64,000 nucleotides of DNA, taken from positions 1,690,774-1,754,773 of the forward strand of contig OZ245332.1 in the NCBI GenBank assembly GCA_965226065.1. Direction: 5' to 3'. Positions 25,801 through 28,800 of the stretch are shown here, piece by piece. The position numbers are program-made. Source of the DNA: Spirochaetia bacterium. Its GTDB lineage: Bacteria > Spirochaetota > Spirochaetia > WTKD01 > G963693115. Position 1 is the first letter of the stretch. Each line of letters opens with the position of its first letter.

Positions 25801-28800
25801 TAACATTAATATCATCGTACAAAATACAAAAAGATAAAGCACTTTTTATATTTTTTAATTTCGTGCAAGTACTTAATATAGTATACGGAGTATGAATAGG
25901 CTTCAAGTGTCACCACATGTTTTAAGTATGAAGAGCATGAAGGGTACTCATACATATCAAAACATTGTTCGACATGCACGAGGGCACTTTGGAGAAAGTT
26001 TGTGTGCACATGTTCTTCAGTGTCGAGGATATAAAATTCTTGCAAGAAACTACAAAGTTATTGGTGGAGAAGTCGATATTATATGTTATAAAGAATATAA
26101 TCTTGTTTTTGTGGAGGTAAAAACATGGGAGTATTATACTGAAGATGATATTATCGCTTCAGTAAACATACGAAAACTTTCTCATATTGAAGCTTGTGCG
26201 AATGCGTATATTGCCGATAAAAATATTTTACACACAAGGATGTGTGTACGTGTTGATGTGATGCTTGTAATGCTTTCATATCACACTGTTGTTCATTACA
26301 AAGGAGTGTTATAAATGCCGCATAAAATTAACAGGAGCAAAAACGATGTATCTTTGCAGAAAGTACATTTGTTAAAACGCAAGATACAGAATCCTGAATA
26401 TCTGACAAATGCAATGCAGTGGATTGCTCGTAATCTTGCACAAAACATAAGTTTAAAACAATAGCGAAGACATTAGTATAATAATCGTATGCATGTGGTA
26501 TTTCCTGGAAGTTTTGATCCACCAACATACGGTCATTTAAATATCATAGAACGCTGTGCCGCTATGTTTTCAAAAGTTGATGTCGTCATAGCAGATAATA
26601 AGAATAAAAAATCGCTTTTTAGTGTAGAAGAACGCTTGCGTATTTTGCAGGAAATTGTCGCTGTATATAAAAATGTGCACATTTTTATATGGAATTCCTT
26701 AATAGTAAATTTTCTCACGAAATACAATGCAAATGTGTTAGTGCGAGGTGTTCGCTCTGCATCAGACTATGAATACGAATTTATGCTTGCACAACTGAAC
26801 CGAGGACTTGGAAAAAACGTAGTGGAAACGCTGTTTATTCCTACCGATCAGAAATATTTTGTGTTACGATCTTCTGTCATAAAAGAAATAGTGATGCTCG
26901 GAGGCGATGTATCAGACAAGGTGCCACAGATAGTTGTGCAAGCATTGCAAAAAAAATTTGCAATGCTTGCACAGCGATCCTGAACTTTAAAAATTTGTAT
27001 GATTTATAATCATGCGTATCGTAAAATTTTCAAAATATTTACCATAACAGAGGTATAGTAATACAGATGAATACATTATGGGTACATGGTGATTTACAAC
27101 AAATAGGAATTGGAGTACATAATGTTGATGTCATGAGAGATTTTTATGCATCCGTGCTTGGCTTTGATACACTTTTGTTTTGCACAGAGGGAAGCATTGA
27201 CATTATGTCTGCCTACACAGGTGGACGCAGCTGGAATAGAAAAGCAATGCTTCTTGCAAATTTCAATGGTGGAGCTACACTTCAGTTGTGGCAACATACG
27301 GAGCATCTCCATGTACCTGCAGAAAATGAAGTAGGGCTTGATAACCGTGGAATATTGTGTACCTGTGTGCGTTGCTGCGATATTGTGAATGTGCGAAATC
27401 GCTTGTTTGATTCGGGATACGAGATAACTCGTATATCTGCAGATAGTCTTGGAAGAAATCGATGTTATGTAAAGGATCCTGAAAATAATTGGATAGGACT
27501 TGTAGAAACATCTGAGGGGTGGCTGAAAAAAAAAGCACATAGTATAGGCGGGGTATGCTCAATCATTATCGGAGTTTCAGATATTAAGAAAAGTATGCAT
27601 TTTTATTCGACTGTGTGCGGATACGATACCGTTTTATCAGAAGAAGTTGGAACCTTTACAGAATTTGAGGCATTTCGAGGTCAACAAAAGGTACGCCGAG
27701 TGTTGCTAAAACGTAGCAAAAAATTACAAGGTGCCTTTGCTCATTTATTGCAGTCTTCAACTATAGAGTTGATTCAGGCCTGTGAAAAACCGCAAGAGCA
27801 TGTATATACAAATTATGAAGAACGTCTTTGGGGAGATCCGGGCTTTATGCATGCATGTTTCGACGTGAAAAACATGCGCGCATTGTGCAATCATCGCAAA
27901 ATACATAAAGATCCATTTATAATTGATTCTGATTTTTCTACAGAAGAAGTATCAGGGCACTTTACCTATGCAGAAGACCCCGATAGAACATTAGTAAAAT
28001 TTGTGGAAATTTATACTTGGTCTCTTATGAAAAAATATGGGTTAGTTCTTAACTTAAAGAAACACAAGAACGCAAAACCACTTCCTAAATTTTTCATGCG
28101 CCTTTTAGCGTTGAAAAAAATACTGCATAAAAAATCTTAACATTTTTTCTCACATTGCGTATATTGTGATAATATGCGCTGTTTCTATACATAGATTTTC
28201 AAGAGATTTTGCTGTTCGTTTTCTGTCATGATTGTGTTTAAGTTTAGTTCATCGCGCATTGTAACAAACTGACGTATGGTGTATTCTATTTCTTCTTTTG
28301 AATGATTTGCGGTGGGAATCATACGATACATTACAAGTCCGCGTGGTATAACGGGGTATATCACGGCTGAGACGAAAACACCTTTTTCTCGCAATAAGGT
28401 AATAGTTTGCGGAGCTATCGAATGCAGCGGGGTATTTTCTCCTATGGGAATGTATACGCTTACAATAGGGGATTCTCCGCTTCCTATGTAGAAGTTTTCT
28501 GCTTGCAATTCTTGTTTGAGCATGCGTGAATTTTTCCACATTTTTTCTCTTCGTATATCGCCTTCATTCCCTGCAATAATAGCAAGCATTTTCTCCACTG
28601 TTTTTACGTACACCATGGGCAATGCCTTTGCGAATATCTGCGTTCGCGCATTGTATTCTATCCAATCAATGACTGCTTTTTTTGCAACAGCAAAGCCGCC
28701 TATAGCTGCAAACGCTTTTGCATAAGTGCCAAAATAAATGTCTATTTCATCGGATACGTTTAGCAGCGTAGCTATTCCGCGCCCACCGTCTCCTAAAATC

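Follow-up and report, generated by a model that had tools for sequence, protein, structure and literature searches.

Organisation of the locus

The DNA analysed here, hereafter the window, comprises 64,000 nucleotides of the genome of a Spirochaetia bacterium and carries, 44 bp apart, two convergent genes, one for a protein of the VOC (glyoxalase) fold and the other for a cysteate fatty acyltransferase (CFAT), such that both the open reading frame and the convergence reported in an earlier survey of this genome prove to be real. The features on which the argument depends are the following.

27067..28140, + strand: VOC-fold gene (g01524), 357 aa, ATG start, four modules
27100..27102, + strand: codon for Gln12, retained; a predicted metal ligand (module 1, strand 1)
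27283..27285, + strand: codon for residue 73, CAG, Gln; Glu in 168/168 others
27850..27852, + strand: codon for His262, retained; a predicted metal ligand (module 4, strand 1), His or Gln in the family
27997..27999, + strand: codon for residue 311, AAA, Lys; Glu in 167/167 others
28185..29465, - strand: gene for CFAT (CapB/SulA/CFAT; 426 aa), running towards the VOC gene
28626..28628, - strand: codon for Lys280 of CFAT, the residue separating SulA-type enzymes from SPT

A promoter and terminator scan of positions 25500-29800 gave about as many hits as chance would produce (16 vs 15.9; 4 vs 3.3).

The product of 28185-29465 is closest to the solved CFATs and carries Lys at the position of SulA 281, a residue which tells SulA-type enzymes from SPT (PMC9304779). 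In the PDB it is matched best by the two cysteate acyltransferases 28eh and 7u7h (325 bits vs 229 for the best SPT), and on a CFAT profile it scores 636 bits, where solved CFATs reach 667-677 and SPTs at most 329. The same genome encodes a cysteate synthase (TIGR03844 over its cut-off at C1:465058-466314), and neither it nor its four order-mates gave a match to a CerS-like GNAT.

The VOC protein scores above the cut-offs of both Pfam PF00903 (Glyoxalase) and PF13669 (Glyoxalase_4), and its predicted structure (pLDDT 91.5) consists of four modules of the paired beta-alpha-beta-beta-beta type, and five VOC structures of four modules match it with Z values above 19, so that it belongs to the VOC superfamily. 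The 778 homologues, the model confidence of about 91 and the fold matches to GLOD4, PcpA 4huz and maize glyoxalase I given by the survey were all obtained again. The protein lies far below the cut-offs of the curated glyoxalase I families (42.9 vs 120 for TIGR00068; 16.8 vs 165 for NF050074) and is not among the matches to the methylmalonyl-CoA epimerase family TIGR03081 at E 0.01, on which distant relatives of the family score 27-36 bits against a cut-off of 115. For P0005, an intact representative, there was no NCBIfam match at 1e-5, the best hit of a VOC profile among PDB sequences was 28.5 bits, and an ESM Atlas search with the homologue P0438 returned clusters bearing VOC names only, which serve as leads only. 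The protein belongs to an unstudied glyoxalase-fold family.

The predicted active site and its loss in the window copy

A site composed of Gln12, Glu73, His or Gln262 and Glu311 is conserved in the family at the canonical VOC strand positions, as judged from the homologue alignment together with the model, in which the four positions fall on strands 6-16, 71-77, 261-268 and 309-321, the ligand geometry being read from these strand positions rather than from coordinates. All intact homologues from the loci examined carry the set, and across the homologues with the residue present the counts are 167/167 for Gln12, 168/168 for Glu73, 167/170 for His or Gln262 and 167/167 for Glu311; Cys264, two residues from His262, is likewise invariant. 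The family accordingly has the four predicted ligands, two of them glutamates, of a metal-dependent isomerase type, and the window copy does not: Gln12 and His262 are retained but residue 73 is Gln and residue 311 is Lys. Both substitutions recur in other strains, no difference being listed in three runs (X1, X4, X5), which rules out a sequencing error. Because both family-invariant glutamates are gone, the window copy is, on the evidence of its sequence, probably non-catalytic in the reaction of the family.

Distribution of the family relative to CFAT

In a sample of 131 Spirochaetia genomes we found 25 full or near-full VOC genes and 29 CFAT genes, the former occurring in 25/29 CFAT-positive vs 0/102 CFAT-negative genomes. 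The claim that all carriers fall within the CFAT genomes is therefore reproduced in the larger sample, as is the location of the VOC gene within 1.5 kb of CFAT in 18/25 loci. The reported absence from CFAT-negative genomes holds for intact genes, but three such genomes match weakly: G063 and G126 encode a degenerate homologue of 396 aa (79 bits), and G102 retains an internally deleted remnant at a syntenic site, with the same two upstream genes as the intact copy of G031. G102 is a case of co-loss of CFAT and VOC, and we count it in favour of a dependence on CFAT.

A set of 80 GTDB loci, gathered with a query different from that of the survey and hence not necessarily identical to its set, contained a Lys-type CFAT in 16 loci, a non-Lys paralogue in 2, a cysteate-synthase-like gene in 7 and a reductase of a subfamily here termed SDR-a in 44, with one or more of Lys-CFAT, cysteate synthase and SDR-a in 53. 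CFAT was present in 67/70 of the underlying genomes tested. Among the Bacteroidales the VOC gene occurs in 61/153 CFAT-positive vs 3/48 CFAT-negative genomes (Fisher p 5e-6, over kin that are not independent), so that 3 of the 64 carriers are CFAT-negative where about 15 would be expected. In a phylum sample of four alternating strata it is found in 58/112 CFAT-positive genomes, and the complete overlap of the two genes (58/58) overstates the association because two of the strata hold neither; for this reason we rely on the Bacteroidales sample. Within one stratum the CFAT link alone is not significant (12/56 vs 0/13, p 0.10).

Gene order points in the same direction. Self-contained clusters are seen in loci L067 and L185, where a FAAL-ACP-CFAT fusion is followed by VOC and SDR-a, in L184, with the order SDR-a-CFAT-VOC, and in L078 and L223, which include cysteate synthase. 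Taken with the 67/70 genomes, the Bacteroidales counts and the G102 remnant, this bears out and strengthens the survey's finding of a conserved partner of the pathway, and we consider it highly probable that the family is linked to sulfonolipid metabolism. The further suggestion of a missing component of synthesis finds no support as far as a core step is concerned. Such an enzyme would be present in essentially all CFAT genomes, and the family is absent from 92/153 CFAT-positive Bacteroidales and 54/112 of the phylum sample, even if in the class it reaches 25/29. What is seen is the pattern of an accessory enzyme, restricted to genomes with CFAT and, in separate lineages, grouped with genes of the pathway, and the VOC protein likely serves a tailoring branch.

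The stronger form of the earlier claim, namely that the protein is the N-acyltransferase wanting in the core pathway or carries out some other obligatory step, is for the same reason very improbable. It could draw on the fact that the literature covered establishes no enzyme for N-acylation, on the missing CerS-like GNAT match in this genome and its order-mates, and on the invariant Cys264 beside His262. Against it, a CerS-like GNAT is found in 20/26 VOC-positive genomes, adjoining CFAT in L113, L115 and L117; with 26/26 VOC-negative CFAT genomes also containing one, a general role of VOC as a CerS substitute is ruled out.

A paired reductase and a putative O-acyltransferase

The closest companion of the VOC gene is SDR-a. 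The 153 CFAT-positive Bacteroidales comprise 60 genomes with both genes, 91 with neither and only 2 discordant, one each way, and the members of the pair are not adjacent in 20/61 cases; in the class sample the coupling is 21/25 vs 5/106. This near one-to-one pairing is new in the present analysis; the survey records neither it, nor the acyltransferase partner described below, nor the decay of the active site in the window copy. Since the family occurs almost only in CFAT carriers and there nearly always with SDR-a, an optional branch in which VOC and SDR-a remodel the first intermediate of the lipid is likely. SDR-a was not found in the window's genome, which is a poor model for the branch because it has lost both the predicted catalytic residues and the partner reductase.

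The survey had instead placed g00370-type SDRs beside VOC and inferred for them a role as ketocapnine reductase. The reductase beside VOC belongs to another subfamily, SDR-a, on whose profile g00370 scores 152 bits vs 325-429 for members; g00370 has orthologues in the CFAT-less G063 and G126, does not track the pathway and sits on a long branch (support 90), and the profile score and these orthologues exclude it as the partner and lend no support to it as the ketocapnine reductase. Compared by eye, the central motif of the SDR-a consensus looks different from that of CapC (QAR30703.1). A PDB search gave no close solved relative, the ESM Atlas returned generic SDR names with one automatic '3-dehydrosphinganine reductase', again as leads only, and the SDR-a motifs do not appear among the entries listed, with cells partly displayed, in a table of gut sulfonolipid SDRs. 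SDR-a presumably resembles DHRS7B. The latter is an acyl-DHAP reductase (PMC7517302).

In Bacteroidota a third gene, encoding a fungal-GPAT-like O-acyltransferase, occurs in 61/64 VOC genomes vs 20/137 and lies directly upstream in many loci; it was found in 0/31 spirochaete genomes. In fungal G3P/DHAP acyltransferases an HX5D motif I is followed after 35-46 residues by motif II (PMC4207751). Among 15 of the partner proteins motif I is present in 14 and motif II, 35-36 residues on, in 12, so that by motifs I and II the partner would be of this type; the motif III pattern is found in 8/15 and motif IV in 6/15, and the best fold match is human GPAT1 (E 8e-6). Among eight genomes from a single stratum of the phylum sample, its score does not tell carriers of VOC from non-carriers (270-298 vs 248-262 bits, with one missing).

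The resemblance to G3P/DHAP enzymes raises the question of whether acyltransferase, SDR-a and VOC could simply act on glycerolipid precursors, in an acyl-DHAP route with VOC as a triose isomerase or glyoxalase, the link to CFAT then reflecting shared ancestry and the clustering of lipid genes. The motifs and fold of the acyltransferase fit this, as do 34 metagenome loci, among which the acyltransferase or SDR-a lies upstream in 20 and a true CFAT within 6 kb in none, the presence of all three genes but no CFAT match in G524, and the persistence of the degenerate homologue in G063 and G126. We nonetheless regard it as improbable: the spirochaetes place VOC beside CFAT without any such acyltransferase, an operon of FAAL-ACP-CFAT, VOC and SDR-a exists, and both the deficit of CFAT-negative carriers in Bacteroidales and the co-loss in G102 speak for CFAT.

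Possible reactions of the VOC family

On balance we favour proton transfer by two bases, on a substrate of the ketocapnine type, as the chemistry of the family. A precedent is SepA, which has a four-ligand, two-glutamate VOC site moving a proton beside a ketone (PMC9978623). More specifically, but only tentatively, the family may be a metal-dependent two-glutamate isomerase acting on 3-ketocapnine, with loss of ammonia opening a nitrogen-free branch. The product of the adjoining CFAT, 3-ketocapnine, would be bound by the metal as a 2-amino-3-ketone, and the C2 proton would be moved to C3 by the two glutamates via an enaminol. Glyoxalase I works through the analogous enediolate. The resulting 2-imine would hydrolyse to ammonia and a 3-hydroxy-2-oxo-alkane-1-sulfonate, a look-alike of dihydroxyacetone phosphate, whose hydroxyl could then be esterified by the acyltransferase, where present, and whose C2 ketone could be reduced by SDR-a to give IOR-1-type diols or O-acyl esters. 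This last step cannot be general, since the O-acyltransferase was found in none of the 31 spirochaete genomes, and we know of no VOC enzyme that deaminates.

A natural nitrogen-free diol of this kind, IOR-1A, is made by some sulfonolipid producers only, and its discoverers propose a 3-keto precursor (PMC9825905); the literature covered identifies no enzymes making IOR-1A or the 4-unsaturated or 5-hydroxy capnines. Belliella baltica DSM 15883 carries the VOC gene (P0438; AFL85264.1), and contains negligible free IOR-1A (PMC9825905) within an ordinary sulfonolipid mass profile (PMC10501047). A VOC-positive strain with so little of the free diol counts against deamination, although acylation of the diol could hide it. 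The IOR-1A-producing genera Algoriphagus, Cyclobacterium and Dyadobacter are not named in the best 120 of 7912 matches found with a query from Cyclobacteriaceae, nor in 20 clusters, which counts weakly against deamination, most matches carrying no name.

A close rival, ranked just behind deaminating isomerisation and itself rather doubtful, is C2 epimerisation. The two-base site would invert C2 of 3-ketocapnine or of its N-acyl form and SDR-a would reduce one epimer only, producing a capnine diastereomer or rescuing a spontaneously racemised intermediate. The ligand set is that of the VOC epimerase SepA (PMC9978623), and such a reaction would account for the strict pairing with one reductase; being mass-silent it fits the ordinary profile of B. 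baltica, and requiring neither oxygen nor an acyltransferase it fits the spirochaetes. It leaves unexplained the G3P/DHAP-type O-acyltransferase directly upstream in many loci, and sulfonolipid stereochemistry is, in the literature covered, assigned as 2R,3R (PMC9305409), none of it from a strain shown to be VOC-positive.

The VOC gene also heads blocks concerned with sulfite supply (cysH-cysD-cysN in L006, L013 and L042; an iron-sulfur Hdr-like block in L024, L049, L061 and L075), as might be expected if the branch served turnover or salvage: SDR-a would oxidise capnine to the 3-ketone and VOC would take the C2 proton, expelling sulfite for reuse by cysteate synthase. The elimination is chemically open, the sulfonate being beta to the ketone, but the same blocks hold CFAT or cysteate synthase, such that the adjacency is not specific to VOC, and the operons with a dedicated FAAL-ACP-CFAT look biosynthetic. 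We therefore think this unlikely, and a dehydratase a little more so. The latter would remove water from 5-hydroxy-3-ketocapnine to give a 4-en-3-one, reduced by SDR-a to a 4-unsaturated base like that of flavocristamide or sulfobacin F, which would amount to desaturation without oxygen. Natural capnine bases do include 3,5-dihydroxy and unsaturated forms (PMC10501047), an enone-specific reductase would account for the SDR-a pairing, and many VOC carriers are anaerobes, judged by names and neighbours. Yet three genera for which no named VOC homologue appears among the matches listed, Algoriphagus, Cyclobacterium and Echinicola, share sulfobacin F, and CFAT could use an enoyl-ACP directly.

Returning to deaminating isomerisation, it could in principle define a second sulfonolipid branch, in which VOC converts 3-ketocapnine to a DHAP mimic that the fungal-GPAT-like acyltransferase and the DHRS7-like reductase turn into ester-linked, nitrogen-free lipids. 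We offer this fuller scheme with marked reserve. Its product would be O-acyl-IOR-1, with a predicted m/z of 575.435, easily overlooked because sulfobacin B has its carbon-13 peak no more than 0.02 away.

Wider significance

Sulfonolipids signal to choanoflagellates and to mammalian TLR4, and the established part of their synthesis comprises the first steps only. Even the ketocapnine reductase is, according to one account, not genetically validated (PMC9304779), and our literature search found no link between the VOC family and sulfonolipids. The present data likely extend sulfonolipid synthesis to many spirochaete families. If the second branch were real, it would represent both a new VOC chemistry and a new class of membrane lipid, in some 40% of CFAT-bearing Bacteroidales and many spirochaetes. 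The question is directly testable because the three-gene module is near-perfect in its presence pattern, a harmless, cultured carrier exists in B. baltica and the predicted ions are exact.

Comparison with known systems

The CapA-CapB-CapC system (Cys, SulA/CFAT and KCR) of Capnocytophaga, Ornithobacterium, Chryseobacterium and Alistipes is represented here by the Lys280 CFAT and the TIGR03844 cysteate synthase; as described in the literature covered it includes no VOC protein, and the host here, judged by its gene content and by the company its homologues keep, is a spirochaete, not a member of the Bacteroidota.

In topology the VOC protein corresponds to the monomeric four-module glyoxalase I of maize, GLX1 (6bnn; Z 21.3, rmsd 3.3, 261 aligned), and to the four-module GLOD4 (9csj; Z 19.5, rmsd 3.9, 259 aligned), and its Gln/Glu/His/Glu set is, we assume, akin to that of zinc-type glyoxalase I. 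It differs from these in its low identity (12-15%) and in being tied to CFAT rather than general in occurrence. The best fold matches, tied within about 1, are ring-cleaving dioxygenases of the PcpA type (4huz, 1zsw and 3oaj; Z 24.7, 23.9 and 23.4). The iron site of PcpA is a 2-His-1-carboxylate triad. The VOC family seems to depart from this, residue 12 being Gln and a fourth ligand position being filled by Glu73; it also occurs next to Hdr-like genes in anaerobes of the gut and rumen.

SepA sets two opposed glutamates in an H20/E67/H83/E129 site and moves a proton beside a ketone (PMC9978623). Both it and methylmalonyl-CoA epimerase are dimers of two-module chains with sugars or CoA esters as substrates, in contrast to the 350-aa four-module chain of the VOC family, with one predicted site and a putative lipid substrate. 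Finally, the eukaryotic acyl-DHAP route, with an Sct1/Gpt2-type acyltransferase and Ayr1/DHRS7B, shares with the present module the HX5D motif set and the order, proposed here, of acylation and then ketone reduction, but in the bacteria considered here both partners go together with CFAT and a VOC protein.

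The VOC gene and its neighbour

In the window the VOC gene g01524 converges on the gene for the sulfonolipid condensing enzyme, cysteate fatty acyltransferase (CFAT), with 44 bp between them:

27067-28140, + strand: VOC-fold protein, 357 aa, an open reading frame with two glyoxalase Pfam matches over the cut-off
28185-29465, - strand: CFAT

The VOC protein matches no NCBIfam family over the cut-off, and the 778 homologues, the model pLDDT (91.5) and the fold matches of the survey's finding were all reproduced. The closest solved relatives of the CFAT are 28eh (Capnocytophaga) and 7u7h (Alistipes) at 325 bits, against 229 bits for the best serine palmitoyltransferase (SPT), and it carries Lys280, a lysine at this position being described as diagnostic of cysteate acyltransferases (PMC9304779). 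A TIGR03844 cysteate synthase scores over the cut-off elsewhere in the genome. The window also holds the aspartate carbamoyltransferase catalytic and regulatory chains as a single fused 525-aa ORF (20767-22344) and, at 32726-35674, an rplI-dnaB region interrupted by HNH-like, IS1595-like transposase and DNA methyltransferase-like ORFs, named from their translations.

Dependence of VOC on CFAT

We built a CFAT profile on which the solved CFATs score 667-677 bits and every other alpha-oxoamine synthase 329 or less. The class, GTDB, Bacteroidales and phylum counts all include related genomes, which are not independent, and with this proviso the earlier proposal that VOC tracks CFAT within the class held in a sample of 131 genomes, where CFAT occurs in 29 and VOC in 25, all 25 being CFAT-positive and 18 having the two genes within 1.5 kb. 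Weak VOC matches in three CFAT-negative genomes were kept out of these counts: G063 and G126 have a degenerate 396-aa homologue and lack cysteate synthase as well as CFAT, while G102 has an internally deleted remnant, lying next to the two genes found ahead of the intact copy in same-genus G031. The 396-aa homologues (L108 and L109:1201-2388, in same-family genomes) are highly diverged, mutually 93% identical and, by eye, missing the ligand motifs; they were possibly repurposed.

A Lys-type CFAT lies within the locus in 16 of 80 GTDB VOC loci and, for the remaining 64 (10 short contigs excluded), elsewhere in 51 of the 54 genomes tested. Of 201 Bacteroidales, 153 have CFAT, and 61 of these carry VOC; so do 3 of the 48 without CFAT. 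One of the 64 genes is a contig-end fragment. In a 301-genome phylum sample, drawn in four strata of which two have neither gene, all 58 VOC genomes fall among the 112 with CFAT; the CFAT-VOC link alone is not significant within one stratum. The dependence is one-way, VOC needing CFAT and CFAT doing without VOC, and the link of the family to the sulfonolipid pathway is strong. It is unlikely that VOC acts on a substrate other than a sulfonolipid, and highly improbable that it performs a core pathway step. Separately, two genomes have a broken VOC gene next to CFAT, interrupted by a frameshift in same-genus G087 (L105/L110) and by a stop in G010 (L106/L111); this reflects either genuine decay or assembly error.

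Partner genes

Clustering the neighbours of the 80 GTDB loci yielded a reductase subfamily, SDR-a (325-429 bits on its own profile), present in 44 loci and mostly directly upstream of VOC. With the best 13 candidates per genome scored, SDR-a occurs in 62 of the 201 Bacteroidales, 61 of them VOC-positive, and the 153 CFAT-positive genomes divide into 60 with both genes, 91 with neither and one discordant each way. The pair is non-adjacent in 20 of 61 genomes, on separate contigs in 18 of these. Within the class, 21 of 25 VOC-positive genomes give an SDR-a-like match; of the other 106, 5 do, and the four that have CFAT alone give none. The weakest of these matches overlap in score with a second SDR subfamily. 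The window's genome has no SDR-a, its best score on the profile being 152 bits. Members of the second subfamily (PRK06181 family, about 211 bits on that profile) lie on the opposite side of CFAT (L031:6863-7699, L189:4561-5463). The genome's own SDR, g00370, which the survey took for the ketocapnine reductase, was rejected as the partner of VOC, since it clusters only loosely with the second subfamily and has orthologues in CFAT-less relatives. At L049, labelled Lachnospiraceae, the VOC and SDR-a sequences cluster with those of a Muribaculaceae locus (support 100), indicating either mis-binning or transfer.

The other partner is a 445-aa PF01553 acyltransferase, found in 19 of the 80 loci and in 61 of 64 VOC-positive against 20 of 137 other Bacteroidales, in none of the 31 spirochaete genomes examined and, in this partner form, not in the window's genome. 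In 34 metagenome VOC loci the acyltransferase lies upstream in 11 and SDR-a in 9, with a true CFAT within 6 kb in none. Its model best matches human GPAT1, and it has the HX5D motif I and the motif II spacing that define fungal G3P/DHAP acyltransferases (PMC4207751).

Other architectures also occur. At L067:6318-9932 (L185) a 1205-aa fusion of AMP-binding ligase, carrier-like and Lys-type CFAT domains precedes VOC and SDR-a in a self-contained cluster, and in two Saprospiraceae (L054:7613-9985, L074:782-3208) a single ORF directly upstream of VOC joins cysteate-synthase-like (CBS-type) and CFAT domains. VOC heads or adjoins an iron-sulfur Hdr-like block (L024, L049, L061, L070, L075) or a cysH-cysD-cysN sulfate-activation operon (L006, L013, L042), both candidate sulfite supplies.

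VOC as a general N-acylation step was rejected because a CerS-like GNAT is common to VOC-positive (20 of 26) and VOC-negative (26 of 26) CFAT Bacteroidales. Of 28 CFAT-positive spirochaetes 22 give such a match, all of them outside the window's order, and the window's genome has none. A 375-aa GNAT convergent with CFAT in Maribacter and Flavobacterium loci (L113:2814-3938, L115, L117), which presumably resembles bacterial ceramide synthase, is a candidate sulfonolipid N-acyltransferase; it shares 30% identity with a gene lying behind an SPT-like one in L118.

The predicted active site and its probable loss in the window

The model folds into four VOC modules arranged as in PcpA, maize glyoxalase I and GLOD4. 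Modules 1 and 4 each carry two of the positions Gln12, Glu73, His/Gln262 and Glu311, one on the opening and one on the closing strand; all four are invariant among the homologues from the loci. VOC dioxygenases have an open iron triad. The family site is instead predicted to be of the four-ligand, two-glutamate type of isomerases and epimerases such as the VOC epimerase SepA (PMC9978623).

The window's copy has Gln73 and Lys311, found in no other of 172 aligned sequences, and its two closest full-length relatives retain both glutamates. Of 61 conserved columns it lacks 21, more than any other sequence, and its branch measures 0.29 against 0.076 for its sister; it is likely a degenerate member of the family. 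The two codons are identical in contigs of three sequencing runs from two studies, run X1 being perhaps the source of the window DNA. The frame is intact and four of five strain differences are synonymous (p about 0.02 against an expectation of one quarter), so that some constraint may remain on the protein, perhaps as a binding protein. Among 50% representatives, glutamate loss recurs in unrelated members; the divergent P0512, P0524, P0549, P0594, P0509 and P0514 have the glutamates replaced too (e.g. E/K/H/K), and as P0512 and P0524 fall in other clades than the window's copy, non-catalytic or lysine-for-metal variants have arisen at least twice.

Proposed reaction and known systems

As an alpha-amino ketone whose C2 proton is acidic, the CFAT product 3-ketocapnine is a type of substrate suited to a two-base VOC site. 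Tentatively, we favour deamination: VOC would isomerise 3-ketocapnine via an enaminol, imine hydrolysis would release ammonia, and the resulting 3-hydroxy-2-oxo-alkanesulfonate would resemble DHAP, to be acted on next by the G3P/DHAP-type O-acyltransferase and SDR-a, giving IOR-1-type diols or their esters. We favour it because a DHAP-like product accounts for both acyltransferase and reductase. IOR-1A, a nitrogen-free diol sulfonolipid, is described as natural and patchy among producers (PMC9825905). Against deamination count the acyltransferase's absence from spirochaetes, the lack of any IOR-1A-producing genus named among the VOC matches (best 120 of 7912, and 20 clusters) and B. baltica DSM 15883, which carries VOC yet is credited with negligible free IOR-1A (PMC9825905) and an ordinary sulfonolipid mass profile (PMC10501047). 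Epimerisation at C2, a possible reading ranking second, suits B. baltica and the spirochaetes better but leaves the acyltransferase unexplained. Sulfite elimination is rather unlikely, and dehydration more doubtful still.

In the literature, mostly outside subscription journals, we found no paper that connects sulfonolipids with a VOC or glyoxalase protein. The VOC module is a genuine accessory module of a known pathway, apparently undescribed, whose reductase probably resembles DHRS7B. DHRS7B is an acyl-DHAP reductase (PMC7517302).
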